Positions 33,295 to 48,975 of a DNA stretch of 64,000 nt are shown here, piece by piece. The position numbers were made by a program, and so were the translations under genes. Under the pieces are notes generated by a model, which saw only the letters and a list, made by a program, of their open reading frames with translations, was not told the origin of the DNA and made no database searches. Positions within the stretch are counted from its first letter, which is position 1; each line of letters begins with the position of its first letter. The DNA is from Gemmatimonadota bacterium. Lineage in GTDB: Bacteria > Gemmatimonadota > Gemmatimonadetes > Gemmatimonadales > Gemmatimonadaceae. The stretch spans positions 1 through 64,000 of the forward strand of contig JAZJZK010000004.1 of the NCBI GenBank assembly GCA_040389905.1. The letters are read 5' to 3'.

Positions 33295-33951
33295 CTACGC
33301 TTTGTTGCCGGCGGCGAGTTCACCGAGCCGCACGCGCGCTTCCGTGGCGAGCGCCGGGTTATCCGACTGATTCGCCAATCCCTCGAACACCTTCTGCGCC
33401 TCGGCACGCTTTCCCGCCGCCAGGTAGGCTCGACCGGCCTTCGACAGGAGGAAGGTCTTTTCGTTCGTCAGCTTCGTGAGACCGGCCGCCTTTTCATACT
33501 GCGCAGCGGCCTCAGCCGTTTTGCCAAGCTGTTCGAGGGCGTCTCCGAGTAACCCGCCAACCGACGCGGCCGCCGGACCATCCCCCACCTTCGACGCCAT
33601 CGCCTGCAAGAATGTCAGTGCGCCCTGGTTGTCGCCCTTCTCCAACCGGAGCTGCCCGATCAGCAAACCGGCCTCTGCGCCCGCCGGCTTGCTCCCGTAC
33701 TTGTCGTACACCTTCTTCAGATCGGCCTCCGCCAACGGCGCATTCCCGGAACTCAGCGACTGCTTGGCCACGAGAAGCTGCTTGTCCGAATTGATCGTCT
33801 CGTTCATGGCGGTGCGCTGCATGAACCAGAACACGAACGCGGCGACGACGACCACTCCGCCTCCGATCGTGACTATCCGGGAGTTGACGTGGAACCAGTC
33901 GATGAAACTCTCAGCTTTTGGCTGGTCGGGATCGTGAATCGGGCTCGTCAT
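33295..33951 (-). CDS. membrane-anchored TPR protein (YfgM-like)
   Basis: single N-terminal TM followed by TPR-like helices (LGDALEQLGK..EA...YEKA). Confidence 0.75.
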   Translation of the reverse strand: MTSPIHDPDQPKAESFIDWFHVNSRIVTIGGGVVVVAAFVFWFMQRTAMNETINSDKQLLVAKQSLSSGNAPLAEADLKKVYDKYGSKPAGAEAGLLIGQLRLEKGDNQGALTFLQAMASKVGDGPAAASVGGLLGDALEQLGKTAEAAAQYEKAAGLTKLTNEKTFLLSKAGRAYLAAGKRAEAQKVFEGLANQSDNPALATEARVRLGELAAGNKA

Positions 33952-34062
33952 TATTGAGGCGTCTCAAGTGCGCGCAGTTGGCGCCGTAGGCGGCGGGATG
34001 GAGGCGGATGTGAAGCCATGAAATGTAATCGGATCGAGGCGCGAGCGCATTCCCGCGCTGCT

Positions 34063-35190
34063 CTAGGTGGTACCGCCCTCAAGTGAGGAAACCCCGTTCG
34101 CCGTCGAGCGGACCCATTGGGTGCCCGCTCCGATGTAGCCTTTTGCGCGAAGCGGCCGCTGCGGTTCGTAGACAACCTTGATATGGTGAAGCGAGAGAAA
34201 GATCGTACTGAGCGAGCGCCGATTGAGGACCGCCGATGCCCGAAGCAGTGCGTCCGGCCAGACATCTCGGTGGTTCACCTCGTCCATCCACCCGTTGAAC
34301 GCGGCGAGCGCCCTGCGCTTTTCAGGAAGGCACAGACCGTCGCGTTCGAGCTCGGCAAGCCAGACCGGCCAGCGCGGCTCCCGGAAATACGGTGTGGAGA
34401 ACATCCCTTCGATCCCGATTCGGACAGCGACCTCCTCGCCGACATCGAGGTCGAGAAGGAGGACGTCCGGAAGCTGAAAATGACGCTGGATAACCGCCCC
34501 CACCGCCGCAAGCGAACCGCGCCAGCCGATCCGCGCGAGATACGGGACGATGTCCTCCGCCTTGATGTAGCTCACGACCAACCGCAATGCCGATGATGGC
34601 CGCTGCAGCATGGCGCCGACGTGCGTCACACTGGTTCCCGGAGGCTGTTCTGCGACGCACTTCTCGATCGTCGCGCGAGCCCGCGGTGACAAGCGCGCGC
34701 CGAGCAGAACGGGAAGCGCATCCTCAGTCAGCCATGGTCCGAAGGAACTCCCGCCGTCGATTCCCTCTGTCGGCCCAATGAAGACATTGGGTTCCGTTGG
34801 CAACTCCGAATCGGACCCATCATCCACGTCGAACTCCAGCCACATATTGCTCATGGTGCGCTCCAGGGCTGAGCCGGGCGACAACCAGCCGGCCGCGAGT
34901 GACTGGATACGTCCCCACGTCGAAGCTCCGCCGCCGGCTGGAGCGAAGGGATACGCCAGATTCTGTCCCGCGAGTGTTTCGCGCTCGCTCCCCTCCCCTC
35001 GAATCAGCACCAGCAAATCGGCGCGCGGCTCGGGCGAACCCAGCGGGCACTCGAAGCCGACTCGCGCGCTCAGCGTCCCAGGCATGTGGCGACAGATTCC
35101 CAATATCCTCGCCATGTTCTCGTGCGAGATGAGCGCTGGCTGAATTCGGCCCACCACCGGCCGAAGCATCTGATCGAGTGTCCAGCTCAC
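34063..35190 (-). CDS. uncharacterised RiPP-cluster protein; putative prenyltransferase (ABBA-like, inferred)
   Basis: GTG start overlaps the cyclase stop (GTGA); soluble ~375 aa with GFECPL, MWLEFD, IGIE, HHIKVVY...AKGY motifs; function inferred from context. Confidence 0.5.
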   Translation of the reverse strand: MSWTLDQMLRPVVGRIQPALISHENMARILGICRHMPGTLSARVGFECPLGSPEPRADLLVLIRGEGSERETLAGQNLAYPFAPAGGGASTWGRIQSLAAGWLSPGSALERTMSNMWLEFDVDDGSDSELPTEPNVFIGPTEGIDGGSSFGPWLTEDALPVLLGARLSPRARATIEKCVAEQPPGTSVTHVGAMLQRPSSALRLVVSYIKAEDIVPYLARIGWRGSLAAVGAVIQRHFQLPDVLLLDLDVGEEVAVRIGIEGMFSTPYFREPRWPVWLAELERDGLCLPEKRRALAAFNGWMDEVNHRDVWPDALLRASAVLNRRSLSTIFLSLHHIKVVYEPQRPLRAKGYIGAGTQWVRSTANGVSSLEGGTT

Positions 35191-36167
35191 GTCTGCATCG
35201 GTTCGGCAACGAAGCGACCGAGCACCGTCGCAATGGCCTGCGCGCAAACGACGGTGGTGAATACGCGAGCGCCGTAGAATTCAGGCAACATGTCGCGAAA
35301 AAAAGTCCCCGTCGCCCAGCCGCCGTCCGGCTGCTGCCGAGCGAGAAGCCAGTCAGCCGACTCCTCATCGCGCGGCCCTTCCGCGCCGGCGGAGAGCAGC
35401 GTCATGACCGCAAGCGCTGTTTCGAGATCACTTCCCCACCCGCCATCCGCATGTTGGGTGTGTCGCAGCCATGCGATAATCGGGTTCATTGTGCCTTCCA
35501 ACTCGGTGACTGCACCTCGCGCGAAGGCACGAGCGATCAGGTACGGCACCGCGAAGCGAGCAACGCCCCAACGATTGAGGATGTGGTAGGTCGAGCGTGT
35601 TGCAATGTGGTGAAAGAACGCGATCAACCGTGGATCAGGCCGCTTGAGGAGCCCCTGTAGCAGGAGCACGTTGGCATTGACCATGGAGTCCGGCAGTTCG
35701 AAGTCATGGGCGTTGATCTCCGGATCTCGCCACGTCTTGAATAACCCACATTCGGCGCGCAGGGGCTCGAGCGAGTCGAGCCACGCGTTGGCTTGCGTCG
35801 CAATCCTTTCGTCACCTGGATTCGCGACAAGACGCGCGGCGTAGGAGACGGACGTCGTATCGAGATCCGGGAGACGCTCTGGAAAGGCTGGTCCGAAAAA
35901 GCGCCACCATCCATCGGACTCCTGCGTTCGAGCGAGGTAGGCGTCGGCGCGTCGGAGCATCGGCGTCGCCGCGGGCGCCCGTGGTTCCATCGCCGCGAGT
36001 GCATCGGCAACGATCGCGTGAAGGTAGGGAGACTCGATGCGGCGCGCGCCAACCAGTCGCGGCGCGCTCGACACCTCGGTACGGAAGCCACCATCGGTCG
36101 ACTGCGCATTCGCGAGAAAGGACAACGCGCGATCCATTGCATCCGTCAGCTTCGAATGACTCGGCAA
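35187..36167 (-). CDS. class II terpene cyclase-like protein (prenyltransferase/squalene oxidase QW repeats)
   Basis: four QW-type repeats (LANAQSTDGGF, LARTQESDGWW, LRHTQHADGGWG, LLARQQPDGGW) and PDLDTT, resembling the DxDD(T) acid motif; AGGAG RBS before the TTG start. Confidence 0.75.
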   Translation of the reverse strand: MPSHSKLTDAMDRALSFLANAQSTDGGFRTEVSSAPRLVGARRIESPYLHAIVADALAAMEPRAPAATPMLRRADAYLARTQESDGWWRFFGPAFPERLPDLDTTSVSYAARLVANPGDERIATQANAWLDSLEPLRAECGLFKTWRDPEINAHDFELPDSMVNANVLLLQGLLKRPDPRLIAFFHHIATRSTYHILNRWGVARFAVPYLIARAFARGAVTELEGTMNPIIAWLRHTQHADGGWGSDLETALAVMTLLSAGAEGPRDEESADWLLARQQPDGGWATGTFFRDMLPEFYGARVFTTVVCAQAIATVLGRFVAEPMQT

Positions 36168-36293
36168 TCTCGACTCCTGACTCGCGCGCTGTGCACGCGG
36201 TGTGATCTACTACATTGAATTGTCGCGAATGGCGAACTAACGTTGGCCCGACAGAAACGAACGTCAAGCCGCCATAAGCTCTGAGGTACAGTC

Positions 36294-36614
36294 ATGGACG
36301 ACAAGGTACAATCGCGGAAAGATCTGGAAGCGAAACTCGTCGAGCTCGCACAAAAGGACGAGCAGTTCGCAGAAGCCCTTCGTCGCAATCCTCGCGCGGC
36401 GATCGAAAAGGAAATCGGCGCGCTACCCGAAGGCATGAACGTGAAGGTCATCGAAGAAGACGCAAACACCTTCTACCTGATCCTCCCACCGGCGGAGCAG
36501 ACCGGCGACTTCGCCCTCTCCGAGGAAGATCTCGCTTCGGTCGCGGGTGGATTGGGTGGACATACGGCAACGTGCTGTGGGTGCGTCGGCACGAACTGGC
36601 CGAAGTCAAAGTAA
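36294..36614 (+). CDS. NHLP-leader RiPP precursor A1 (core LGGHTATCCGCVGTNWPKSK)
   Basis: nitrile-hydratase-like leader (KDEQF...NPRAAIE...VIEE..NTFYLILP), LSEEDLASVAGG double-Gly site, GAGG RBS. Confidence 0.92.
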   Translation: MDDKVQSRKDLEAKLVELAQKDEQFAEALRRNPRAAIEKEIGALPEGMNVKVIEEDANTFYLILPPAEQTGDFALSEEDLASVAGGLGGHTATCCGCVGTNWPKSK

Positions 36615-36624
36615 CTGGCTCGCG

Positions 36625-36661
36625 CGAACGCTCCCCAAATCGGGGGCGCGCTCGTTTTTTT
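36625..36661 (+). terminator. terminator-like hairpin between the two precursors
   Basis: imperfect GC stem followed by TTTTTTT. Confidence 0.6.
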
Positions 36662-36714
36662 CTCGGCGTCGTATTCGCGCTCGCGCGCCGCCCCACACCT
36701 TCAGAGGCACAGTC

Positions 36715-37029
36715 ATGGACGAAAAAGTACAGTCGAGAAAGGATCTGGAAGCGAAACTCGTCGAGCTCGCACAGAAGGACGAGCAGTTCGCGGAAGCCCT
36801 TCGCCGCAATCCTCGCGCTGCGATCGAGAAGGAGATCGGCGCGCTACCCGAAGGCATGAACGTCAAGGTCATCGAGGAAGACGCCAACACCTTCTATCTC
36901 ATTCTTCCGCCCTCCGAGGAAACGGGCGACTTTGCGCTCTCAGAGGAAGATCTCGCCTCGGTCGCAGGTGGTGCACACACGGCAAGCTGCTGTGGCTGCA
37001 CCGGCACGAACTGGCCGCAGTCGAAGTAA
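36715..37029 (+). CDS. NHLP-leader RiPP precursor A2 (core AHTASCCGCTGTNWPQSK)
   Basis: leader identical to A1 at 83 of 86 residues, same GAGG.ACAGTCATG start context. Confidence 0.92.
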   Translation: MDEKVQSRKDLEAKLVELAQKDEQFAEALRRNPRAAIEKEIGALPEGMNVKVIEEDANTFYLILPPSEETGDFALSEEDLASVAGGAHTASCCGCTGTNWPQSK

Positions 37030-37050
37030 CCGACTCTCATGCCGATGGTG

Positions 37051-37089
37051 CGGGCGCGCTCCCACAGCGGGGGCGCGCCCGTTGCTTTT
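37051..37089 (+). terminator. rho-independent terminator after precursor A2
   Basis: CGGGCGCGCTCCC-loop-GGGGGCGCGCCCG followed by TTGCTTTT; lies between the convergent A2 and lanM genes. Confidence 0.7.
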
Positions 37090-37097
37090 CGCCGCCG

Positions 37098-40000
37098 TCA
37101 GCGACGCCACGCGAGGACGCATGGAAGGCGTCCCGGGAACGCCTGACGAAGCAGCGCGTAGCCAACGCCGGCACTGCCCTGAAAGAAACCGGGAAAGAGG
37201 GCTTCCCGCGGCAATCCTGGCAACAGCTCATAGCTGCCGGCGTCCGCCTTTTCGAGAACGCGACTTGTCAGCTCCCGAGCCTCCGCCGCGAGATCCGCGC
37301 GCCCGAGATCGACCGCTGCTTCGAGGAGAATGTCCGCCCTCCCCATGTTCCCGCAACACAGTTGGTCTACGCCTTCAAGTCCGTGGGCGCGCGTCGTGGA
37401 CAGTGCAATGTCCAAGTCTTCACGCACTGCTGCGGTGTCGAGCGCGTGGAGTCCCACAAGACGCCCGAGTGCGATGCCGGGAGCGCCATGACACCACGAC
37501 GTCCAGATCGAGGGACCTCCATCCGGCGCTGATTCGCCGAGTCGCGGCCAGTTGCCGTGGGCGGTCAGGAACAGCGTGCGCTCGTACGCTACGGCCTGCT
37601 CGGCTGCCGTGACCAGCGTCTCATCCGGCCCGAGGGCGTGCACTCGCAACAGCGCTGCGGCAATGCCAGCCGCCCCGTGTGAAAAGCCGGCGAACGGAAG
37701 GTCACGGATCGTATTCCACGCACGTAGTCCCTGCCCCGGAACGACGCTTTTCGCAACGAGGTGACGAGCACACAGCTGCGCGCGCGCGAGGGCGTTCACG
37801 TCCCCGGATGCCTCGTAGAGCGCAAGCAATCCGAGCGCCGCGCCCGCACTTCCGGCAATCACATCGAGCTGTGTGTCGGCCGCGACGATCGTCTCGTCAA
37901 TGAGCGTTGCCGCCGTACGTGCCGCGTTCAACAGCAATGGTTCACCCAGCCACTCGCCAACCAGGGTAAGAACGTAGATCGTGGAGCCAATGCCATCTGC
38001 TCCGCCAATCCCTACGGCTGAGCGAAGACGTTGGGGCTGGCGATGCAACTCCTCACGAAGCGGTTGAAGTGCCTCCAATGCCCACGTTCGCCATTCCTCC
38101 GACGCCGTGATGCGCCACAACGCCGCGAAGAAGAGTCCCACACCGGCACATCCGCTGTAGAGACCGTAACCCAGCGGATGCATTTCGTAACGCCCTGCCT
38201 GCGGGAAAAACTGCACGGCGATCCACGATGCGCCGCCGTGCGGTGCACGCACGGCGTTGTTGACCAGCTCGCGAGCGATGGCAACCGCGCGAGCCACGAG
38301 CATCTCCGGCTCGAGCGTTCCAGAGGGTCGTGCTGCAACGGCGGGCGAAGCGACGGTATCACTCGGGCGCGGCTCCCGCGCCACGCGAAGGTGCAGTGTC
38401 GCACGAATGAACGAGACTTGGCGCTCGCAGTCCTCGAGGCTCAGCGCCGCGATTCTCGCCCGTGCGCGCGCTGCAGGTGAGACCCCGAAGCAGTCTGGCA
38501 CTTCCCCATGTTCGCCCAGCGGAAGCGACCTGGAACCAGCATTCGCGACGAAGAGCGGAATATCCGCGCGCTCGAGTGCCTCGGCCTCGGCTTTCCGCAC
38601 GGGCCAGAAAGCGTGCAGTGACGGATTCTCAACGAGGATTCTGCTCGGCGCATCGATCGCCGTGGATCGATCGACACCATCGCGAAGCAACGTCCGATTG
38701 TAGGATGCGTTCAGGTTGAGGAAGTACTCGCGCGTCGCCCGGAACAGGAAACGCACCCGCTCACTCTCGAGCCCTTCCAATGGGCCACCGCGATCGAGAA
38801 GCGCGTCGCGATTACGCAGCAACAATTGGTAAAGCCCGCGGAAACCTTTGACGAGAGAGTCGGCATAGTCCACCGGTGACAACGCGCGGTCGTCCAGGAT
38901 GACAACGTTTTGCTGCGGCTGTGCATCCACGTGTTCACGGACGAGACGCATGTCGTCGGTGTTTGGATGTTGCCACGTGGCCATCCGATCGAGCGTCTTC
39001 TGATCGCCGCCACCCCCGAGGGCGCTGATGTCTTGACTGCTTCCATCTGGTCCGAATACCCAGCGCGGGAGCAGGCCGACTGACAGCACCGTGTCTGCGA
39101 GCATTCGGTCGGCGACGACGAATGCCGTGGGCTCCTGCTCAGCCCCACCATTGAGCGGACGCTCTTCGTGCGAGACCAGCATCTCGAGGTCAATGAGCAT
39201 CGGTTGCTCGCCGCTCGCCACGAGGTTCTGGTCGTGGAGGTCCGTTGTGCCAAGCGCATGCATGAGCGCGAGGATCATTCCGGCGCGCTCATAGTATCGT
39301 TCCGCCTCGGCGACGTCAGCACAGGCGCGCTGTTCGGCGAACTCCACCCAGCCGTGGGTTGGCCTGGCGAGAACCTTGAGTGGCCGAAGCGGCGGCGACG
39401 CACCGCGATCATTGGCCCACTGCAGCAACCGGAACCAGCGGGACTCCAACGCCAAATCGCGCGGTTTGTAAACGACACGCAACCCAGAAGCAAATGTCAC
39501 AATTGCCACAGTACGCCCGCCGCTGTGCGCATCGGAAAGTCCAGCGTTCGCCGACACGACGCCGCCAATGTCCACCCCGTCGGCGAAGAGCGCTTGAATA
39601 TCGTTCTTATCTGCAACGAGCCGATCGATTGTCTCCTGTGTCACGTCAATCCACTGATCAGTCACCGTGGCGGTGAGGCGCGCGGCAACGGGAAAGCGTC
39701 TGAAGAATTCGGTCAGCCCTCCGGTGCGCATCCGCTCCAACCAACGCCTGTAGAGGTGCTGCGGCGGGGTGCGCTTCCCCGCGAGTCCGCGCTCGAGGGG
39801 TGATTGCTGCGCCGCGCGAAATGCGAAGAACTCCTGGACGAGCGCGTTGGCGCAGATGCTCGAGATCGAGCGTAGCAGGTCCTGCTCGAAGGCGGCGAGC
39901 GCGACGTCCGACATGGTGCTCGCCCTGGTGCGTGCTGCGAGGCGAGTCCGTGCGAAACGCACGAACGGGAGAAGCGCCTCCTCCATCGGGACCGGGCGCA

Positions 40001-40331
40001 GCGGATCCATACTGCGGTCCGTTTCTACCCATGACTCGTCGGATAGCACGGCAGCGAGTGTCGCGGTCCACGCGGGGAGCGGCGTGTCCGCTGGAAGACG
40101 CACCTTGCCGAAGAGTCGGCGCGCGTCGGCGGGTGTCAAACCATCCATCGCCAGACGGCGCTCGAACAGGGCTTGGTCTCCACCGGCAACGAAGCGACGC
40201 CACCGTTCGAATCGCGAGTCGACGTCGGCCGCACGCGCTGGCTCGTCTTCGAGAATGGTGCCAACGGCGAGCCGCTCCGTGAGAGAAGTAGCGCGCGCGA
40301 CTATCTCCCTCAGCTCCGCATCGGACAACAT
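37098..40331 (-). CDS. lanM: class II lanthipeptide synthetase
   Basis: 1077 aa; dehydratase motifs VVYKPR, TDLHDQN, IDLE, FRAT.EY; LanC-like cyclase motifs FSHGAAG, WCHGAPG, LCCGNMG. Confidence 0.93.
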   Translation of the reverse strand: MLSDAELREIVARATSLTERLAVGTILEDEPARAADVDSRFERWRRFVAGGDQALFERRLAMDGLTPADARRLFGKVRLPADTPLPAWTATLAAVLSDESWVETDRSMDPLRPVPMEEALLPFVRFARTRLAARTRASTMSDVALAAFEQDLLRSISSICANALVQEFFAFRAAQQSPLERGLAGKRTPPQHLYRRWLERMRTGGLTEFFRRFPVAARLTATVTDQWIDVTQETIDRLVADKNDIQALFADGVDIGGVVSANAGLSDAHSGGRTVAIVTFASGLRVVYKPRDLALESRWFRLLQWANDRGASPPLRPLKVLARPTHGWVEFAEQRACADVAEAERYYERAGMILALMHALGTTDLHDQNLVASGEQPMLIDLEMLVSHEERPLNGGAEQEPTAFVVADRMLADTVLSVGLLPRWVFGPDGSSQDISALGGGGDQKTLDRMATWQHPNTDDMRLVREHVDAQPQQNVVILDDRALSPVDYADSLVKGFRGLYQLLLRNRDALLDRGGPLEGLESERVRFLFRATREYFLNLNASYNRTLLRDGVDRSTAIDAPSRILVENPSLHAFWPVRKAEAEALERADIPLFVANAGSRSLPLGEHGEVPDCFGVSPAARARARIAALSLEDCERQVSFIRATLHLRVAREPRPSDTVASPAVAARPSGTLEPEMLVARAVAIARELVNNAVRAPHGGASWIAVQFFPQAGRYEMHPLGYGLYSGCAGVGLFFAALWRITASEEWRTWALEALQPLREELHRQPQRLRSAVGIGGADGIGSTIYVLTLVGEWLGEPLLLNAARTAATLIDETIVAADTQLDVIAGSAGAALGLLALYEASGDVNALARAQLCARHLVAKSVVPGQGLRAWNTIRDLPFAGFSHGAAGIAAALLRVHALGPDETLVTAAEQAVAYERTLFLTAHGNWPRLGESAPDGGPSIWTSWCHGAPGIALGRLVGLHALDTAAVREDLDIALSTTRAHGLEGVDQLCCGNMGRADILLEAAVDLGRADLAAEARELTSRVLEKADAGSYELLPGLPREALFPGFFQGSAGVGYALLRQAFPGRLPCVLAWRR

Positions 40332-40340
40332 CGCGTGGTC

Positions 40341-41816
40341 CTAGGGATTCGTGTAAGCGCGGACCGACTGGCCCGTGTCTGCTCGATAGCGCACCACGGC
40401 ATTCACGAGGTCGAACCACGCGCGCGCCTCCTCGAACTCTGCCTGTGACTCTTGCTCCTCGTACTGAAGAAGGCGGAAGATATCCGAAAGTCCCAGAGCG
40501 AGTCGCTCGCGCTCCCCCTCATACTGCTCCCGCGCGAGCCGCATTGCCTCGGTACTGCGGGTCAACCGCTGGCGTCCAATCGTGATGCCGCGATACGCGG
40601 ACCGAACTTCCACGCGGGTGGCATTCTCTGCCTGCAGGAGCGCCAACGAAGCGCCTTTCGCAATGGCATCCGCGCGCTCGGCTTCTGCCTTGGCCGCATG
40701 GTTCCCGATTGGGTACGTGACGAGAAGTCCCGCGCGCCAGTCGGTCAACCGTGCCTCATTCGCATCACGCGCCGAGAATCCGGCGGCGTCTCTCGTGAAC
40801 GCGAGCGTGGAAAACCCTGCGGCCAGCCCAACGGACGGCCGAAGGTTGTCGCGTGCGAGGTCCAGCAACACGCGGCTTTGATCCAACTCGCTTCGCGCCA
40901 CGGCGATATCCGGCCGCTCGGTCAGCGCGGCGCTCACCGTCGTACCAAGTGGAGGCAATTCGGGAATGACGACTGCCGTATCGACCGCGAGCAGAAACTC
41001 GTCGTCCTTGAGCAATTCTGCGGGCGCGTTCTCTCCATACACCGCAAAGACCAGCGCATCCTGTGCATCATGCCGTGCCTGCATGAGCCTCAACAGCGCC
41101 GCCTGGCGAGAGGTAACGCCAAGTCGAGCGGTCGTGAGGTCGATCTCCGTGATCCGGCCGATGCGACGCAGTTCGAGGTTCGCCACGAGCAGATCCTCAG
41201 CCCGTTTGAGCGAGCGTTCTTCTACGGCCTGCGCCCGTTCCTGCTCGACGAGTAGGTAATACGCCGCTTCGATACGCGCTACCGTCTCGTTCTGGATTTG
41301 CGCCAGGCGGGCGCGCGCGGCATCGACGCCGAATTCCGCGGCGCGCGTCGGAGCCGTGGTCGCTCGGCTGCGGAATCCGCGCAGCAGCGGCTGCACCACG
41401 CTGGCCGAGAAAGTGTTCTGGGCGAGCGGTTCTCCGGGGAGCGCAGACTGGAAGCCCGTGCCGACCTGATAGGTAGTGCCGGTGCGCAACGCACCCTGCA
41501 CCGCTCCCGTGTAAAGCCGACTCGCCAACTCGGAGCTTTGGCCGGCCAGCACGCGTCCATTGGAGGTGTAGGTCGGTCCAATCTGAATGGCCGGATCGAA
41601 CGCCGATTGCGCGGCAAGGACGGCACTCGATGACGCACGCGCGCTGACGCCCGCCTGACGAACATCGAGGTTTCGCTGCAGCGCGATGCGCACCATGTCT
41701 GCGAGACGAATGCGGAGCGTGTCGTCGTGCACCGATTCGTCATGCGCCGGTTGAGCCATCGCGCGACTGGCCAGGAGCGACGCGAGAAGAATCGCGGCAG
41801 CGTGTCGTCGCGTCAT
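40341..41816 (-). CDS. TolC family outer membrane efflux protein
   Basis: signal peptide, ALQRN.D, AFDP, QPLLRG, RPD, two helical efflux repeats. Confidence 0.88.
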   Translation of the reverse strand: MTRRHAAAILLASLLASRAMAQPAHDESVHDDTLRIRLADMVRIALQRNLDVRQAGVSARASSSAVLAAQSAFDPAIQIGPTYTSNGRVLAGQSSELASRLYTGAVQGALRTGTTYQVGTGFQSALPGEPLAQNTFSASVVQPLLRGFRSRATTAPTRAAEFGVDAARARLAQIQNETVARIEAAYYLLVEQERAQAVEERSLKRAEDLLVANLELRRIGRITEIDLTTARLGVTSRQAALLRLMQARHDAQDALVFAVYGENAPAELLKDDEFLLAVDTAVVIPELPPLGTTVSAALTERPDIAVARSELDQSRVLLDLARDNLRPSVGLAAGFSTLAFTRDAAGFSARDANEARLTDWRAGLLVTYPIGNHAAKAEAERADAIAKGASLALLQAENATRVEVRSAYRGITIGRQRLTRSTEAMRLAREQYEGERERLALGLSDIFRLLQYEEQESQAEFEEARAWFDLVNAVVRYRADTGQSVRAYTNP

Positions 41817-44722
41817 GTGGTCTGCCGAGCCGCCAGCTTGGCGAACAGACCATCGCGCGCCACGAGGTCTTCGTAACGACCCTCCTCCACAATGCGGCCT
41901 TCGTGCATGCTGAAGATGCGATCGGCGTTCCTGATGGTGGAGAGACGATGCGCGATCACCACGCGAGTCGCCTGAAGCCGCTCGAGACTCTTGCTCACGG
42001 TTTCCTGCGTCCGGTTGTCGAGGGCACTTGTTGCTTCGTCGAAGAAGATGATACGCGGCTTCTTCACGAGGGCTCGCGCGATCAGCAGCCGCTGACGCTG
42101 GCCACCCGACAACGCCGTCGCGCCCTCACTGAGCACCGTATGCATTCCCATTGGCATGAGCCGAATGTCATTCGCAAGTCCCGCCATCTCCGCCGCCTCC
42201 CACACGTCGTCCAGACTCAGCGGAGCCGCGCCCGCGATGTTGGTGAAGATGTCACCGGCGAGGATGCGACTCTGCTGTAACACAACGGCACATTGGCTGC
42301 GGACCGCTGAGACGTCCACGGAGGAAAGGTCCTGCCCGTCAAAGATGACGGCTCCACGCTCGGGACGTTCGAAGCCTAGGAGGAGCCGCAGGATGGTGGA
42401 CTTCCCTGCCCCTGATGCGCCAACGAATGCCACGAATTCGCCTGGCCGTATCTGGAATGAGACGTCCGAGAGGATGGGCGGCCCGTCGGCGAGATAGCGG
42501 AACGTGACGTGTGATACCTCGATCCGTCCGGTCAAGAGGCCCGGGTCGGGCTTGAGCTCGTCCACCTCGGGCGGCGTGACCAGGATCGGCCGTGCGCGCT
42601 CCAACATCGGAATGATGTTCAGCAGACTGACGGCTGTGGTACTCATCTGCGTGCCAGCGGTCAGGAACGCACCGAACGCCGCATAGAACGCCATGAAGTC
42701 TCCGGTCGAAAGCGTCTGGCCGGCCCCGGCGTCCGAGCCGGAGATGAACACGAGAAAGAGGACGATCGCCGCGACCGTCGGAAGCGTTTCGTTGAACACG
42801 GTGACGGCCGCCTGACTGAGCCCCATGCGGTAGGACACCGCCTTCTGGTCGCGGAAGATGGCGCCCCACACGGCAAAGGCACGACGCTCAGCGGCCGCGA
42901 CGCGAAGCTTCGCGATGCCGCCGAGGATCTGGAAAAGCAGCGCGCCCACTCGTCCCTGTATTTCCTGCCGTTGTCGCTCGAGCCGGAGGGTGTGCACACC
43001 TAACGCGCCAGTGACGAGGACAGAGACGACGAACACGCCAAGTGCGACGAGCGCCAACTTGCCGCTGTACTTGATCATCAGAAACAGGTTTGCCACTACG
43101 AGCATGCCGCCGAGCAACGCAGTGATGGCGGCGCCGCTGAGGAGTTCTCGCACGCCGTTGATGGCCCCCGCACGAAGCGACAGATCGCCGACGCTGAAGC
43201 GCCGGAAGAATGGGACCGGAAGCGCGAACAACCGATCCACGAGTGCGGCTTGGAGCGTCGCGTTGGAACGTCCTTCGAAGCGCACGAGCGCCATCGCGCG
43301 CGCGAGATCCACCAGGCCGCCGCCAATCGCCATACCAGCCAGTGCGCCAAACAACGCGAGCGCATTGCTGATCTGCGCACTCGGAATGACGGCGTCGAAA
43401 ATCTTCTGCGTGGAGATCGGAAGCGCGAGACTCAGGAGGCTCGATGCCACCGCAAACAGCAGAACGCGTCGAAGATCGATCCATGCCTCGATGCCCGCCA
43501 CGCGGGCAAGCACTTTGAGATCGATCGGTCCACTCGGCGCGGGGCGGTAGAACATGTATCCCACCGCCTCGAGCGTGCCGGCCACTTCCTTCGTCACGAT
43601 TTCACTCGTTCCGGTGGCTGGGTCGCGGAGCGTGTAGATCCCTTCGACCGAGGAGAGCAGCGCGACGGGAGCATTCCCTTCCGAACGGTAAGCGAGGAGG
43701 GGCCCGCAATCCGTGCTCCACCACTCGCCGCGCAGGACCACCCGCCGATGGCGGACGCGCGAAGCCCGACAGATCGCGCCGAGGCGGTCGCGCCAACGTC
43801 CGCTCTCCTCCCAGCTTGGCGGCGCCCGGAAAACGATGCGTGCGGAATCACCAACAAGCCGACACGCCGCGAGCAGCGGATCCGACGTTTCGAGCAACGG
43901 TGGAGCAGCGCCGCGGGAGGTGCCGAGGACACTCGCGAGGCCAGTCATGCTCAGCGCCTCGAGTTCTCGCTCCTGATCCGCCTTCCGTCGCAGCCGCTCG
44001 CGATCGGCCTGCATCGCGCTCGCGGTACCTTTCGCCGCCCAGGAGAGAAACGCGCCGCGGACGATCTTCAGCGCCGGCCGCACATTGCCGTGTGCCAAGG
44101 CGTTTTCGGTGCTCACCGCGGTGAGCGTGGCCTTGGCAGACGTGACGGAGTACCACATGCCGCGCGCCAACGGCAGCGCGGCGCTAGCCTCCAGAGGCAC
44201 ATCATTGGCGAAGGCAAGCTCGCCGTCGCTGGCAGAAATCCAGCACACTGCGCGCGGCGCTCCAACCGACGCAGCGCGTTGGAGGCTGAGCGGTTCCGCG
44301 TCGAGTTCGATATCCACCACTGGTCCGTGCGACGTGGCCGCCATCGCGCGGGCGAACGTTTCAGCGACTCGCTCGGCAAGCGGTGCCGACCAGCCGCTGT
44401 GATCGTCGAGCGCCGATTCCGGAACCGCACGGATCCGAGCCGCGCCGGCCGCAACAGCGATCAGCGTCGCGGTGCCGTCTGTGGTGCCTCCGCCGAGGAC
44501 CACCTCGTTCGCCCAGAGCGTCGTGAGAAAGTGGAGCGGCCCGAATTCGCCGTCCGGCCTCTTTTCCGCGAAAAAGATGTCGACTTCACCCTTGAGCACG
44601 ACCCAGAGTGTGTCCGGATCATCGAGTGGGAGTGGCGTGTTCCCGGGTAGCGTGCGCACTGCCCCCGGCAATGCCGCGTCGCTCAGTTGCGGCTGGATGA
44701 GGTCTGACCTCGCTTGGCGCAC
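41813..44722 (-). CDS. NHLP bacteriocin export ABC transporter permease/ATPase (no peptidase domain)
   Basis: N-terminal cNMP-binding-like segment, TM domain, GASGAGKS, LSGGQRQR, FDEATSALD; GTG start chosen at 44722. Confidence 0.88.
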   Translation of the reverse strand: MRQARSDLIQPQLSDAALPGAVRTLPGNTPLPLDDPDTLWVVLKGEVDIFFAEKRPDGEFGPLHFLTTLWANEVVLGGGTTDGTATLIAVAAGAARIRAVPESALDDHSGWSAPLAERVAETFARAMAATSHGPVVDIELDAEPLSLQRAASVGAPRAVCWISASDGELAFANDVPLEASAALPLARGMWYSVTSAKATLTAVSTENALAHGNVRPALKIVRGAFLSWAAKGTASAMQADRERLRRKADQERELEALSMTGLASVLGTSRGAAPPLLETSDPLLAACRLVGDSARIVFRAPPSWEESGRWRDRLGAICRASRVRHRRVVLRGEWWSTDCGPLLAYRSEGNAPVALLSSVEGIYTLRDPATGTSEIVTKEVAGTLEAVGYMFYRPAPSGPIDLKVLARVAGIEAWIDLRRVLLFAVASSLLSLALPISTQKIFDAVIPSAQISNALALFGALAGMAIGGGLVDLARAMALVRFEGRSNATLQAALVDRLFALPVPFFRRFSVGDLSLRAGAINGVRELLSGAAITALLGGMLVVANLFLMIKYSGKLALVALGVFVVSVLVTGALGVHTLRLERQRQEIQGRVGALLFQILGGIAKLRVAAAERRAFAVWGAIFRDQKAVSYRMGLSQAAVTVFNETLPTVAAIVLFLVFISGSDAGAGQTLSTGDFMAFYAAFGAFLTAGTQMSTTAVSLLNIIPMLERARPILVTPPEVDELKPDPGLLTGRIEVSHVTFRYLADGPPILSDVSFQIRPGEFVAFVGASGAGKSTILRLLLGFERPERGAVIFDGQDLSSVDVSAVRSQCAVVLQQSRILAGDIFTNIAGAAPLSLDDVWEAAEMAGLANDIRLMPMGMHTVLSEGATALSGGQRQRLLIARALVKKPRIIFFDEATSALDNRTQETVSKSLERLQATRVVIAHRLSTIRNADRIFSMHEGRIVEEGRYEDLVARDGLFAKLAARQTT

Positions 44723-44723
44723 G

Positions 44724-46922
44724 CTAGCTCTCCCGGGCGAGCGTGGCATACAGGCCGTCCGGATCACGCATCAGCGTGTCGTGCGTGCCTCGCTGTACCA
44801 CAGCACCTTCCTTGAGCACAACGATTTCGTCGGCATCGCGGATCGTCGACAGCCGGTGCGCGATGATGACGCATGTGCAGCCGCGCCGACGCAAGCTCCT
44901 GTCGATTTTGTGCTCGGTGACCGAGTCGAGCGCGCTCGTGGCTTCGTCCAGCACCAGCAGCCGAGGAGAAAGCACCAACGCGCGTGCAATTTCCAGCCGT
45001 TGCCGCTGGCCGCCGCTGAAGTTGGCTCCGGCTTCCTCGACCTGGCTCTCGTACGCGCCCGGCCGAGACATGATGTCGTCGTGAATCGACGCATCGCGGC
45101 AGGCCTGCATGAGCACCGCCTCGGGAACCGTCGAGTCCCAGAGGGTCAGGTTCTCGCGGATGGTCCCGGCAAACAGCGAAATCTCCTGGTCCACCAGCGC
45201 GACAGAATTCGCGAGCACGCGTCGCGGCCACGCCGTACGCGCCTTGCCGTCGAACAGCACGTCCCCTTCCCACGGGTCGTAGAGACCCGTAGCCAGTCGT
45301 GCCACTGTGCTCTTTCCGCAGCCCGACGGGCCAACGAGCGCAACACGACGCCCCGACCGCATGCGTAAATCAAAGTTCTTGAGCAGCGGCGCCGCCTGCC
45401 TCGAATAACCGAAGGTGACACTGCGGAGCTCGAATGCCCCTTCGAGCCGGTCTTCCGCGCCTTCCTGATCCTCTGCCGCGGTGAGCCCAATCCGGCTGTC
45501 CGCCGGGTATTCCAACACGTCCTGCACTCGTTCCATGTTGCCGTGCATTTCCTGGACGGAGCTCGCGAGCTGCACGAACGACGCGACGGGTTGAAGGAAG
45601 CTGGCCATCAAGCTCTGAAACGCGACGAGCATTCCAATGGTGAGATCACCCTCGATGACGCGATACGCGCCGAACGTGAGGACGATCGCATTGGTCATGG
45701 TGATCGTGAACGCCGGCACCACGAGGAAGGATTGCGTGACACGCGCCAACGACTGTTGCGCCATGAGATACTTCGCCTGATAGCCGGCCCATCGCGCGAA
45801 CACGTCACTTTCCGAAGCGCCGGCCTTGAGCGTCTCGATCGCGCTGAGTCCTGCCATCAGTGTTCCCGTGGACTTTCCTGCCTCCTGCAGCACGCGGCGA
45901 TTGCCGTCGACTCTGCGCCGGTTGACGACGACCGTCGATCCCGCCAGCACGGCGACCGCCAGCACGCCGAACAGGGTGAGCAGCGGATCGTACGCCAACA
46001 TCAAGGCGGCGTAAAACACGACGAGCAGGGCGTCGATCGCCGTCGAGGCCAGCTTGCGCGACACGAATTCCGAGATGGTGTCGTTGATCGCCACACGCGA
46101 GCTGATCTCGCCGCTGTAGCGTTGCGCATAGAACTCGACAGGAAGCCGGAGCAGATGCGAGAGGAAGCGACTCGAGGAGCTGATGGAAAGCTTCGTATCG
46201 AGCCGCAACAGGTAGTAGTGTTGCAGCCACCCGAGGGCCGCGCGCACGACGGCGGTCAGCCCCATGCCCAGCAGCAGCGGACGGAGCCAGTCGCGCAGGT
46301 TATGCACGAGCACCTGATCGACGAACACCTGCGTGAATGCAGGAAGCGCGAGTCCCGGTACGACCAGCGCGAGGCCGGCAAGCAGCGCAAACGTCAGGGC
46401 ATTCTCGGAACCGCGGACACGCTCGCGCAGGAGCGCGACGAGATTTGGCGGCGCGCCACCCGGCGTGAATTCGGATGTGCGCGCGAACTCGAGGACGACT
46501 CCAGTGAAGCCCTGATCGAACTCGTCCTTCGTGATGCTATAGGGGCCCTGCGCCGGGTCGTTGAGGTAGTAGCGATCGTCGAGGACGCCCTCGAGGACGA
46601 GAAAGTGATTGAAGTTCCAGAAGACGATGGCTGGAAATACGGTGCGGCCCATGTCCTTCAGCTCGCGCCGGAACCCCTTCGCCTCCAGTCCGTAACTTCG
46701 TGCAGCTCGCAAAAGAACCGCGGCGTTCGAGCCGTCGCGCGAAACACCGCAGGCAATGCGCAACTCCTCGAGTGGCACGCGACGTCCGTGAAACGCGAGC
46801 ACCATTGCGAGTGAGGCTGCACCGCACTCGACCGCCTCCATTTGGAGGATGGTCGGCGTTCTGACACGCGTACCTTCTGGGCGGCGGGGGAAAAACGCCC
46901 GCAGCCGCTGCAGCCTAGACAC
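44724..46922 (-). CDS. NHLP bacteriocin export ABC transporter with C39 peptidase domain (LanT-type)
   Basis: QMEAVECGAASL (catalytic Cys), WNFNHF (His), NDPA; GPSGCGKS, FSGGQRQR. Confidence 0.92.
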   Translation of the reverse strand: MSRLQRLRAFFPRRPEGTRVRTPTILQMEAVECGAASLAMVLAFHGRRVPLEELRIACGVSRDGSNAAVLLRAARSYGLEAKGFRRELKDMGRTVFPAIVFWNFNHFLVLEGVLDDRYYLNDPAQGPYSITKDEFDQGFTGVVLEFARTSEFTPGGAPPNLVALLRERVRGSENALTFALLAGLALVVPGLALPAFTQVFVDQVLVHNLRDWLRPLLLGMGLTAVVRAALGWLQHYYLLRLDTKLSISSSSRFLSHLLRLPVEFYAQRYSGEISSRVAINDTISEFVSRKLASTAIDALLVVFYAALMLAYDPLLTLFGVLAVAVLAGSTVVVNRRRVDGNRRVLQEAGKSTGTLMAGLSAIETLKAGASESDVFARWAGYQAKYLMAQQSLARVTQSFLVVPAFTITMTNAIVLTFGAYRVIEGDLTIGMLVAFQSLMASFLQPVASFVQLASSVQEMHGNMERVQDVLEYPADSRIGLTAAEDQEGAEDRLEGAFELRSVTFGYSRQAAPLLKNFDLRMRSGRRVALVGPSGCGKSTVARLATGLYDPWEGDVLFDGKARTAWPRRVLANSVALVDQEISLFAGTIRENLTLWDSTVPEAVLMQACRDASIHDDIMSRPGAYESQVEEAGANFSGGQRQRLEIARALVLSPRLLVLDEATSALDSVTEHKIDRSLRRRGCTCVIIAHRLSTIRDADEIVVLKEGAVVQRGTHDTLMRDPDGLYATLARES

Positions 46923-48171
46923 CAAGCCACCTGCGCAGCGCTGGGATGACCAGCGCAATCGGCGCTCGGCGTTGAATCACGATCTTTCCGTCCAGAAGCG
47001 TTCCACTGCCGAAGGTCATCGGTGGTCCGTCGCCGGTCGTCCACGCGAACCCACTTGGCGTCGCTGGATTTCGGTCTACCGTCACGTCCACGAGGTATGC
47101 GCCGCCGCGCGACGTGAACTGGTTGACCAACACGTCATTCTTCAGGTAGCGATGAAGCGCCGTGCCGCTGATCGGTGCCAACGAGACGGAATGGACGGTT
47201 CCCAGGAAGTAACCGCTTTCCTCTGGCTTGACGCCGCCAGGAACCATTTCGACGCGCATCCCCGGACGTATCCGCTTCCCTTCCAGCGGAATAAAGAGCG
47301 AGACCTGAATGGGTACCGTCGACGACTCCAGCGTGACGATCGGTGTGTGGCTGGAAATTGCCTGACCGGCATCGACGAGTTGCTCCACCACGACGCCGTC
47401 GTAGGCGCTGGTTACGTTGGCCGCCGCCGCGAACTGTTCCTTCTGCGCCGCCAACCGGTGCTCCGCCTCCCAGATCTGCTGGTCGAGCGTGAAGACCGTT
47501 TGACTGCTCTGGCTCGTCAGTTGAGAGACTCTGGCGGCGAGTTCCTGCTTCCGCGCCAACGCCCCCATGAGTTGTTGCTCGGATTCACCGCGCTGTGCGA
47601 TGGTGCCCTGCGCCGCATCGGGCGTCAACAGTCCGCGCTTGAGCGCTTGTGCCTCCAGCGCGATCCGATCATCCAGGTACTTCACCCGGTCGCGAGCGGC
47701 GACGATTGTCGCGTCCGCCTGCTTTTGCTGCTGGTCGATCGACGCGAGCTCGAGGCGCTTGCTGGACTGGACGAAGGGCACCGTCGCGGCGCGGTTTCGG
47801 CGCAGCTGTTCGAGGGTGACCTCTGTCTGCGCCACGGCGGTTTGCAACTCGGGCTGTGCGAGGATCGCGACCACCTCCCCTTTGTGCACTGGCGTGCCGG
47901 GCCGCGCGACCATCTGTTCGATCTGCCCGGCGCCATTGGATTGGACCCGGAACAATCCGCCTTCACGAATCATCAGGCCGGATCCGGCGATGGCCTCGGG
48001 GATTCGCCCGAACACTCCCCAACTCAGGGCCCCAACGACCACAGCACCAAGCGCTGCCAGTGCCATCCAGCCCTTGAGGGTAGTGACCTCCATGAGCGTG
48101 TCCAACCGCTCCGGGCTGGACAGTCGCTCGAGCGCCACAGCGCGAAAGAGGCGGCGCGGGTTGCCAGCCAT
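46915..48171 (-). CDS. NHLP bacteriocin system secretion protein (HlyD family)
   Basis: FRAVALERLSSPERLD N-terminus, one TM, coiled coil, beta-barrel C-terminus. Confidence 0.9.
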   Translation of the reverse strand: MAGNPRRLFRAVALERLSSPERLDTLMEVTTLKGWMALAALGAVVVGALSWGVFGRIPEAIAGSGLMIREGGLFRVQSNGAGQIEQMVARPGTPVHKGEVVAILAQPELQTAVAQTEVTLEQLRRNRAATVPFVQSSKRLELASIDQQQKQADATIVAARDRVKYLDDRIALEAQALKRGLLTPDAAQGTIAQRGESEQQLMGALARKQELAARVSQLTSQSSQTVFTLDQQIWEAEHRLAAQKEQFAAAANVTSAYDGVVVEQLVDAGQAISSHTPIVTLESSTVPIQVSLFIPLEGKRIRPGMRVEMVPGGVKPEESGYFLGTVHSVSLAPISGTALHRYLKNDVLVNQFTSRGGAYLVDVTVDRNPATPSGFAWTTGDGPPMTFGSGTLLDGKIVIQRRAPIALVIPALRRWLGV

Positions 48172-48273
48172 GATGGAGGTTTCCGGGCTCCGCAGGCGAG
48201 GCCTCGGAGCGTGCTAGAGACGAATGCTGTCGTTGGGAGAGATGGAAACCGACGACGTCGTGCGGATAGGAAA

Positions 48274-48347
48274 TACCCTCGGGCGGACTCGAACCGCCGG
48301 CCAACGGTTTAGGAAACCGCTGCTCTATCCACCTGAGCTACGAGGGC
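48274..48347 (-). tRNA. tRNA-Arg(CCT), CCA not encoded
   Basis: GCCCTCG acceptor stem, TAGCTCAGGTGGATAGAGC D-arm, GCGGT-TTCCTAA-ACCGT anticodon arm, GGTTCGAGTCC T-arm. Confidence 0.95.
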
Positions 48348-48420
48348 AACGACTTCCCTCAAACTAGCAAGAGCGTTCGCCGCGCGGAACACTCGTTTGT
48401 GATGCGAGAACCTCGAGTCA

Positions 48421-48975
48421 TCAGACCGAGTAGAGGGACGTGCACCGGCGTGCTCCCAGTCGGTTCATTCCCTCGAGAAAAGCGATGTCGAGAAGAAAGG
48501 AACACCCGACCACGGTGCCGCCGCCCCGTTCAACGAGCTGGCACGCCGCCGCGGCGGTACCTCCAGTGGCAAGCACGTCGTCGACCACGAGCACCCGCGC
48601 CGGCGCGGCGCACGCGTCATCATGCATCGCGAGGCGGTCGGTTCCATACTCGAGGGCGTATTCCACTTCCGTCACGCGCCACGGCAGCTTCCCCGGTTTC
48701 CTGATCGGCACGAAGCCTACACCAAGCTCGATCGCCACCGGCGCGCCAAGGATGAAGCCGCGGCTCTCGATACCCGCGACATGCGTGACGCCCGATGCAC
48801 GCCACGGCGCCGCCATGGCGCGCGCGACGTCGCTCAACAGTTCACCGTTACCGAGCACCGGCGTGATGTCCTTGAACAGGATGCCCGGTTTGGGAAAGTC
48901 AGGTACATCGCGCAAAGTGGCGCGGAGTCGCTCAACGAGCGCCGCATCTCCGGATGACTCCAGCTCTGTTTTCAT
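48421..48975 (-). CDS. apt: adenine phosphoribosyltransferase
   Basis: PDFPKPGILFKDIT, ESRGF, RKPGKLP, YALEYG, VDDVLATGGT. Confidence 0.95.
   Translation of the reverse strand: MKTELESSGDAALVERLRATLRDVPDFPKPGILFKDITPVLGNGELLSDVARAMAAPWRASGVTHVAGIESRGFILGAPVAIELGVGFVPIRKPGKLPWRVTEVEYALEYGTDRLAMHDDACAAPARVLVVDDVLATGGTAAAACQLVERGGGTVVGCSFLLDIAFLEGMNRLGARRCTSLYSV

Follow-up and report, generated by a model that had tools for sequence, protein, structure and literature searches.

Peptides that carry cyclised terpenes, a chemistry known from cyanobacteria, have been described only recently, and the enzymes characterised for them are fusions. One of these, NctPC (Hubrich et al. 2024, Chem), joins an ABBA prenyltransferase to an MstE-like cyclase; as described in the review PMC13290415, it geranylgeranylates a Trp and then cyclises the chain, with lanthipeptide macrocyclisation reported as the first step of its pathway. 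According to the same review, ChrPC too combines a prenyltransferase and a cyclase on an internal Trp, its prenyltransferase having a trans-IDS fold. For the mpp cluster (MppE, MppM, MppC, MppD; PMC11791876, PMC12715784, bioRxiv 10.64898/2026.10.04.756588), it is already in the literature that the prenyltransferase and the terpene synthase are encoded by two distinct genes next to LanM (PMC11791876): MppC geranylates a Trp of a macrocyclised lanthipeptide, requires the leader, rejects free Trp and favours GPP (C10) as its donor (PMC12715784), and the terpene synthase has been reported without an assigned function.

We analysed a window of 64,000 nucleotides from a Gemmatimonadota bacterium (GenBank assembly GCA_040389905.1, contig JAZJZK010000004.1, positions 1 to 64,000), in which a first-pass annotation had described two precursors, a LanM, an exporter and a cyclase–prenyltransferase pair; all of these genes were recovered with the same coordinates, and by its sequence the locus is a class II lanthipeptide (NHLP/LanM) cluster. 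The NHLP precursors A1 (36294..36614, forward strand, 106 aa) and A2 (36715..37029, forward strand, 104 aa) reach 71.3 and 71.7 bits, respectively, against TIGR03793 (cut-off 50.9 bits), A2 being a tandem duplicate of A1 (a 271-nt repeat of 88% identity). The A1 core, LGGHTATCCGCVGTNWPKSK, contains 4 Ser/Thr, 3 Cys and 1 Trp, and the A2 core, AHTASCCGCTGTNWPQSK, contains 5 Ser/Thr, 3 Cys and 1 Trp. The core length of 17-20 residues proposed earlier is corrected here to 20 aa (A1) and 18 aa (A2) following the first double-Gly, or 17 aa for A1 if this is cut at the second GG. The unmodified cores have monoisotopic masses of 2018.91 (A1) and 1850.75 (A2). The LanM (37098..40331, reverse strand, 1077 aa; TIGR03897 819.5 bits, cut-off 304 bits) is full length, with the dehydratase and LanC-like domains (PF13575 and PF05147) and the motifs YKPR, DLHDQN, IDLE, RFLFRAT, FSHG, WCHG and CCG. 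The genes of the complete NHLP exporter lie on the reverse strand and comprise a TolC-type outer membrane efflux protein (40341..41816; PF02321 (OEP) 123 bits, the TIGR01844 threshold not being reached), an NHLP export ABC transporter permease/ATPase (ABC2; 41813..44767; TIGR03797 875 bits), a C39 peptidase-ABC transporter (44724..46958; TIGR03796 1044 bits; PF03412 116 bits) and an NHLP-system HlyD membrane fusion protein (46915..48171; TIGR03794 284 bits). The last three are all above their family cut-offs, the start codons of the two ABC genes being uncertain, and the C39 protein is the predicted protease for leader cleavage at the double-Gly. The cluster has in common with mpp a long-leader Trp precursor, a class II LanM, a stand-alone prenyltransferase of the same ABBA family and a separate terpene synthase gene; it differs in having an NHLP rather than a Nif11 leader and a core of 17-20 rather than 7 residues, whereas mpp has additional halogenase, oxygenase and arginase-like genes.

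The first gene of the divergent pair (35187..36167, reverse strand, 326 aa) codes for a stand-alone monodomain class II terpene cyclase (PF13243, SQHop_cyclase_C, 49.9 bits, cut-off 26.1 bits) and starts with a TTG codon that has an AGGAG 6 nt upstream. Sequence, structure model and fold search agree with the terpene cyclase that had been guessed here: the model (pLDDT 91.4) has a single alpha6-alpha6 beta domain, and the top 10 rows of a VIA fold search are class II terpene cyclases with Z 23.5-33.7, other helical barrels reaching Z 21.8. The QW repeats of the first-pass annotation are present as four QW-like repeats, but the DLDTT motif (D101-L-D103-T-T, with D101, D103 and T105 conserved), likened there to DxDD, is of the DxDT type; the DxD and DXDT motifs of class II cyclases are described in PMC12414744 and PMC12232559. 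The protein stands outside the canonical DxDD/SHC-like class, having the motif DLDT, one domain instead of the beta-gamma didomain, and 48 bits against TIGR01507, whose cut-off is 431. The DLDTT aligns with the catalytic D-A-D109-T-T of MstE, and we rejected the notion that it marks a dead enzyme because the motif matches that of MstE.

Like MstE (PDB 6SBB; Z 28.3), the cyclase is a single beta-domain barrel with a DxDTT acid motif; it probably differs in clade, shares 20% identity with MstE, and MstE acts on geranylgeranyl-dihydroxybenzoate, not on a peptide. Direct sequence similarity between the two is negligible (E 0.086), a strong profile match to MstE having come from an alignment that contained MstE-like rows. 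The best structural match is the cyclase domain of the drimenol synthase AsDMS (PDB 9MHS; Z 33.7), with which the DXDT motif is shared; AsDMS, however, is fused to a HAD phosphatase, uses free FPP and is 18% identical to the cluster cyclase. A profile search for homologues was swamped by squalene-hopene cyclases, since its alignment contained such rows. In a quick tree, from which rows L049 and L071 were left out as they had no profile hit and in which MstE is not a row, the cyclase sits on a long branch together with 23 DxDDT/DxDST rows (SH-aLRT 97) and away from the DADS/TT group. In that tree its company is DxDDT monodomain cyclases, and the fusion domains of MstE type identified in this analysis fall elsewhere. 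Within its own subfamily it departs at T104 (Asp in 8 and Ser in 2 of the other 10 rows) and in a C-terminal motif, and it retains the catalytic Asp together with the conserved W88, F143, W146, N164, N166, Y209 and G299.

The second gene of the pair (34063..35190, reverse strand, 375 aa) begins with a GTG codon that overlaps the TGA stop of the cyclase (GTGA). A contig of run X1 covers this junction without differences, but the window may itself derive from that run, so the agreement does not independently rule out a frameshift; run X2 contributes a small share, all of it scattered short pieces. Sequence searches of the 375-aa protein against Pfam, NCBIfam and PDB gave nothing usable, and its assignment therefore comes from a fold search: with an AlphaFold model of pLDDT 93.7, VIA-align returned Z of at least 8 for 19 of 48,161 chains, all of them ABBA prenyltransferases, the next row standing at Z 6.2. 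The solved structures nearest to it are the small-molecule indole prenyltransferases MpnD, CymD and DMATS. The cyanobactin F-family (PagF, PatF, DciF), which also uses an ABBA barrel on peptides, is a weaker structural match (Z 10.6-12.1), and its members are leader-independent, about 300 aa long and without detectable sequence similarity to the cluster protein. A genome scan with the single cluster protein yielded 71 pattern matches, 0 of them confirmed, and relatives were found with a narrower alignment. Among these is an MppC-type protein of genome G444, with 123 of 358 columns identical (34%; E 2.3e-51) and the same family indicated by profile (E 5.9e-133); it adjoins an ACWRWSG precursor and carries W336/F340 as published for MppC. 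What had been called a putative prenyltransferase is, on model and sequence, best regarded as a predicted ABBA-fold (PT-barrel) peptide prenyltransferase of the MppC family. It keeps the family-invariant E119, D121 and R203 and the near-invariant E47, D58, R197, D249, E261, H336, K338, K350 and Y352, and departs from the family at L332 (Arg in 102 of 121), V205 (Cys in 96), G262 (Cys in 93) and T357 (His in 73). The position of the leader-binding Phe340 of MppC is occupied by Val321, in a family column with Leu 49, Phe 28 and Val 7 of 121.

Homologues of the prenyltransferase are linked to RiPP genes in other genomes, as the first-pass annotation had supposed: LanM, a C39 exporter or a precursor occurs at 62 of 80 related loci, and LanM together with a separate cyclase-like gene at 27 of the 80, for which reason we rejected the view that the split form is rare. 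Trp is found in 81/99 cores linked to this prenyltransferase family, as against 6/17 and 10/24 in controls. In the phylum sample, an NHLP match is present in 29 of 31 genomes with the prenyltransferase versus 23 of 370 without it, counts in which kin are not independent. A cyclase-like domain is detected in 12 of 160 prenyltransferase homologues, and in one of these 12, P0096, the domain is of the cluster cyclase's own subfamily. In the mpp-type cluster of G444, a 726-aa protein combines an amine-oxidase domain with the cyclase-like one, whose motif is ADDS and which belongs to another clade. The subfamily of the cluster cyclase also occurs outside RiPP loci, and we rejected its being RiPP-specific: at 19 metagenome loci it was never beside this prenyltransferase family (0/19), which counts against our preferred explanation, and UbiA prenyltransferases adjoin 3 of the 19.

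From the genes, folds, motifs, family membership and linkage observed here we infer each reaction of a pathway whose product is probably, by analogy with characterised systems, a lanthipeptide whose Trp bears a cyclised terpene, made by the prenyltransferase and then the cyclase. LanM, going by its family, would dehydrate Ser/Thr and join them to the three Cys of the T-A-(T/S)-C-C-G-C-x-G-T segment in at most three thioether rings. The prenyltransferase would then engage the leader and move a prenyl chain of C10-C20 onto the Trp of the N-W-P tail, as suggested by MppC and the Trp enrichment. The chain would be supplied by housekeeping metabolism: as had been noted, a prenyl-diphosphate synthase is absent from the cluster, and two are located elsewhere in the genome, among whose genes no clear GGPP synthase candidate was identified. 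On the precedent of MstE and NctPC, Asp103 of the cyclase would protonate the terminal alkene, whereupon the chain would close into rings with no change in mass, and the C39-ABC/ABC/HlyD/TolC machinery would strip the leader and export an amphiphilic lipopeptide of 17-20 residues. As in NctPC, an ABBA prenyltransferase and a class II cyclase are predicted to act in the order of Trp prenylation and then cyclisation; NctPC is one polypeptide, whereas here there are two ORFs, cyclase first, whose products would work in an NctPC-like manner. The internal Trp as target would likewise match ChrPC, whose prenyltransferase differs in having the trans-IDS fold instead of the ABBA barrel (PMC13290415).

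Certain observations count against this sequence of prenylation followed by cyclisation, namely the long branches of both the prenyltransferase (1.22) and the cyclase (end branch 1.46), the departures of both enzymes from common residues of their families, the negligible direct sequence similarity of the cyclase to MstE, the lack of a clear GGPP synthase among the genes of the genome, and the preference of MppC for C10 GPP, with which at most one ring would be possible. In a less likely interpretation, the prenyltransferase alone is active and the prenyl chain attached to Trp stays linear, as known for MppC, with the cyclase decayed or idle. The GPP preference of MppC fits such a product, as do related LanM loci that have the prenyltransferase with no cyclase detected within 10 kb, among them that of L087, the nearest relative by tree path; the branch length of the cyclase and its several departures from the subfamily are likewise in line with decay. 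Against decay speak the full-length open frame with its ribosome-binding site and translational coupling, the confident model, and the retention of the catalytic Asp and conserved residues. The pair might alternatively work in the reverse order, the cyclase acting on a free prenyl diphosphate (e.g., converting GGPP into an allylic diphosphate of the copalyl type) and the prenyltransferase transferring the rings to Trp, which we regard as improbable. The top structural match to a free-FPP cyclase with a DXDT motif, drimenol synthase (rmsd 2.2 over 292), with MstE ranking below it (rmsd 3.0 over 294), accords with this order, as do the placement of the cyclase, in the quick tree, outside the DADS/TT clade that contains the MstE-like fusions and the smaller residues at several conserved prenyltransferase positions; but the characterised fusions, as described in the review PMC13290415, prenylate and then cyclise, and proteins of the cyclase subfamily carry NHLP-like domains in the same polypeptide or have UbiA prenyltransferases as neighbours, associations that are consistent with a prenylated acceptor as the substrate.

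That the pair is unrelated to peptides, and instead prenylates and then cyclises an indole or phenol to give a free meroterpenoid, is very unlikely. Its location in a separate divergent operon, the action of the closest solved prenyltransferase structures on small-molecule indoles, and the presence of the cyclase subfamily beside UbiA genes with no detected RiPP genes are all compatible with such a product. Yet RiPP genes accompany the prenyltransferase family at the 62 of 80 loci given above, the NHLP co-occurrence across the phylum sample (with its related genomes) points the same way, MppC does not accept free Trp (PMC12715784), and the pair shares one insertion with the RiPP genes.

The high novelty that the first-pass annotation attached to this locus is not borne out, as split genes are in print for mpp (PMC11791876), fusions such as NctPC are published, and split pairs are common; to a specialist the cluster would come as no surprise, being the kind of relative that known systems lead one to expect. 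The novelty that is left lies in a minimal split system whose cyclase apparently belongs to another clade, and for which the literature consulted gives no characterisation. With two near-identical one-Trp precursors, LanM, prenyltransferase and cyclase, and no other tailoring genes, the cluster offers a minimal test case that could reveal whether a free monodomain cyclase takes a prenylated peptide, and in which order the steps occur; the different clade might also give a different ring system, and a separable cyclase would serve peptide lipidation. There is also a modest chance of a more far-reaching case. A free-standing monodomain class II cyclase, phylogenetically distinct from the domains in MstE-like fusions, might work in trans, either on the lanthipeptide once it is prenylated or beforehand on the free prenyl diphosphate, and give a terpene-Trp ring skeleton that has yet to be described; cyclases of this clade, joined to an NHLP domain that resembles a leader, would also equip LCCCW (srp-type) YcaO clusters. 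If true, terpene-peptide hybrids would have a second route that is widespread, and the cyclase would be a portable enzyme for peptide-bound terpenes.

The cluster is placed between a tRNA-Arg and a TPR gene, at a site that in relatives is vacant or has other content: where the 14.5-kb block stands, 17 of 39 relatives have a gap of <500 bp. The bordering tRNA-Arg(CCT) (48273..48348, reverse strand), omitted from the first-pass annotation, is a core gene of this apt-tRNA-TPR site, and the same tRNA lies directly ahead of the TPR gene in genomes G077 and G251. The GC content is level across the block, no integrase is present among the cluster's genes, and the repeats listed include no duplicated tRNA end. 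Within the block, the cyclase–prenyltransferase pair is oriented divergently from the precursors, and LanM and the exporter are convergent on them. A search for sigma-70 promoters gave 0 matches, and terminator-like sites (4 observed) are not above chance (3.0 +/- 1.7 in shuffles). A terminator-like 14-bp hairpin, a consensus match only, lies between the convergent ends of A2 and lanM (37050..37088, forward strand). A hairpin with a T-run follows A1 (36629..36661, forward strand; repeat family D13), and a related 28-nt copy of it sits after A2.

The gene inventory of the first-pass annotation, which had read this locus as a lanthipeptide cluster with a split pair of terpenoid-forming genes, was recovered in full in the ORF list and translations, and its reading of the cluster is real and right in outline. 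The minus strand codes for an HlyD protein (46915-48171), a C39-ABC transporter (44724-46958), a second ABC protein, ABC2 (41813-44767), a TolC protein (40341-41816) and a LanM (37098-40331). HlyD (with its NHLP-system model), C39-ABC, ABC2 and LanM exceed curated cut-offs; for TolC, Pfam OEP is the only model passed. Convergent with lanM are two plus-strand precursor genes (36294-36614 and 36715-37029; NHLP model above curated cut-off), a tandem duplication (271 nt, 88% identity) with the cores LGGHTATCCGCVGTNWPKSK and AHTASCCGCTGTNWPQSK, each bearing three Cys and one Trp. The divergent pair, also on the minus strand, comprises a cyclase gene (35187-36167) followed by a prenyltransferase gene (34063-35190), coupled through a GTGA overlap. 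The LanM displays a CCG motif at its zinc site, which we take to be the three-Cys type, as in the substrate-tolerant ProcM.

The prenyltransferase lacks a Pfam, NCBIfam or usable PDB sequence match and has 2,588 homologues at E <= 0.001. The top structural matches of a model built from 121 sequences (pLDDT 93.7) are all ABBA prenyltransferases: 19 of 48,161 chains reach Z >= 8, headed by MpnD (Z 16.7, rmsd 4.5, 300 aligned) and then CymD, with the first row below them at Z 6.2, and Foldseek agrees with this fold. For kinship with MppC, the Trp prenyltransferase of the published mpp lanthipeptide cluster, 52 genomes were searched for the mpp core, which was present in 2. Besides LanM and a Nif11 precursor, the mpp-type cluster of genome G444 has two UPF0489 genes and a halogenase; its prenyltransferase, if a GTG is taken as the start, shows the same W336 and F340 as MppC, matches the family profile at E 5.9e-133 and is identical to the window enzyme in 123 of 358 columns. 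The window enzyme retains the invariant residues of the family but departs from it at L332, V205, G262 and T357; where MppC has F340, it carries Val. In two family members (P0004, P0006) a 2OG-Fe(II) oxygenase domain is part of the same protein, and the Atlas offers, as leads only, similar folds combined with radical SAM, nitroreductase or halogenase domains.

The ten best structural matches of the cyclase model (pLDDT 91.4) are all class II cyclases, including drimenol synthase (Z 33.7), a monodomain myxobacterial cyclase (29.9) and the monodomain meroterpenoid cyclase MstE (28.3); unrelated helical barrels score up to Z 21.8. On its own, the window cyclase finds MstE at E 0.086; in a profile that included MstE-like rows, its DLDTT is aligned with the DADTT of MstE, whose second Asp is the residue changed in the D109N structure. 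The MstE motif is described as DxD (PMC12414744) and the acid motif of drimenol synthase as DXDT (PMC12232559); hence, DLDTT is compatible with activity. In a quick tree covering 47 domains, the window cyclase, itself a long branch, groups with monodomain cyclases of the DxDDT type; the DADS/TT group and the mpp-type domain fall elsewhere. The mpp-type terpene-synthase gene of G444 (L131:4121-6301) codes for a fusion of a flavin amine-oxidase domain and a cyclase-like one whose motif is ADDS.

Among the best 80 of 92 prenyltransferase-family loci, found by patterns from 8 central members and many on short contigs, 62 have at least one of LanM (42), a C39 domain (25) or a precursor (49). A separate cyclase-like gene occurs in 49 of these 80, 27 of them also with LanM, and a fusion in one; the separate gene bears a DxD(D/S/T)T motif in 15, of which 10 have LanM, two of these as a cyclase-LanM fusion. 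A cyclase-like domain lies within the protein in 12 of the 160 top prenyltransferase homologues. In a phylum sample of 401 genomes, whose denominators count G157 as non-matching, 29 of the 31 prenyltransferase-bearing genomes have an NHLP match, versus 23 of the 370 others. Of the 18 matches to the cyclase subfamily, 16 are <=10 kb from the prenyltransferase, mostly in one clade present in the query alignment. None of 19 strong metagenome matches of the cyclase subfamily, nine of them on less than 3 kb, adjoins the prenyltransferase family, one adjoins an NHLP leader, and three stand beside UbiA genes among 19 neighbours scanned. These metagenome counts tell against the linkage. The subfamily is convergent with UbiA prenyltransferases in L218, L219 and L221, with glycosyltransferases near in L221; these loci are probably meroterpenoid clusters.

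We consider it reasonably likely that the LanM would form thioether rings, the prenyltransferase would put a prenyl chain on the tail Trp, the cyclase would close this chain, and the C39 system would then cleave and export the peptide. MppC geranylates the indole C5 of Trp on the macrocyclised peptide, requires the whole leader and does not accept free Trp (PMC12715784). That the window pair would perform linear prenylation only appears unlikely. NctPC, an ABBA-plus-MstE-like fusion, geranylgeranylates Trp and then cyclises, according to the review PMC13290415, which describes ChrPC alongside it; for lanthipeptide macrocyclisation ahead of prenylation, PMC12715784 cites a report by the same authors. 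Prior cyclisation of the free diphosphate would be a rather improbable route here. Still less probable is a separate meroterpenoid made by the pair.

For Trp as the predicted acceptor, the residue is present in 81 of 99 distinct prenyltransferase-linked cores (96 loci) versus 6 of 17 control cores from enzyme-free genomes and 10 of 24 lying >15 kb away, these being automatically parsed cores with a few evident errors and non-independent kin. Precursors adjoining the prenyltransferase in L137, L138, L141, L142, L144 and L148 have Trp-free cores (LCCCG, LSCCA), which this reading does not explain. As first proposed, the cluster lacks a prenyl-diphosphate synthase; in the genome, which is 84.6% complete, there are two polyprenyl synthases, one nearest FPP synthase and the other nearest long-chain synthases, both below curated NCBIfam cut-offs in the part scanned, and one phytoene/squalene synthase family gene.

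The apt-tRNA-Arg(CCT)-TPR interval (33951-48424; tRNA at 48273-48348) is an insertion hot spot. Among 60 genomes sampled from the family (G473 excluded from the count), 39 keep apt and the TPR gene in order on one contig, with gaps of <500 bp in 17, 0.5-6 kb in 19 and 15-25 kb in 3; in the window the gap is 14,472 bp. Neither of the two same-genus genomes searched yielded the prenyltransferase. Therefore, the cyclase-prenyltransferase pair and the RiPP genes are a single block in a variable site. In G077 this interval contains an 841-aa ORF upstream of the tRNA, presumably subtilisin-like by its sequence motifs.

The high novelty initially accorded to the cluster does not hold: the chemistry class is already published and the split layout widespread. 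The abstract of Hubrich et al. 2024 reportedly describes fused architectures as common, and therefore suggests that split forms were noticed there; our literature search, whose scope did not extend to that paper, found no characterised stand-alone monodomain cyclase acting on a prenylated lanthipeptide. The cluster offers a clean, minimal setting for studying what free cyclases do in such loci.

Related loci display further architectures. In eight from same-class genomes (L037:5803-7134, L038:5623-7065, L040, L041, L042, L043:3126-4475, L044, L045:5651-7054), a DLDST class II cyclase carries an in-frame N-terminal NHLP-like domain, and the clusters combine the prenyltransferase family with LCCCW or LCCCG precursors, a C39-ABC exporter (7 of 8), YcaO (all 3 scanned) and, in L043, a Trp halogenase. 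LCCCW is the published SrpE core (PMC10858898); within a literature search whose scope did not include the original srp paper, no paper reported srp clusters with a prenyltransferase or with a cyclase fused to a leader. Two Actinomycetota loci (L106:5304-9839, L107:10963-15417) have a DADST-type cyclase and LanM in a single open frame, ~1,500 aa between stop codons, that immediately follows the prenyltransferase and an NHLP precursor. In a mostly cyanobacterial set (L048-L072, L077-L079, L091, L100, L103; e.g., L049:9953-11815), the prenyltransferase is followed by a ~600-aa protein whose C-terminal part is weakly cyclase-like and lacks DxD(D/S/T)T; the one scanned (L049) is without a Pfam match, and cores at these loci often end in KW or GW.
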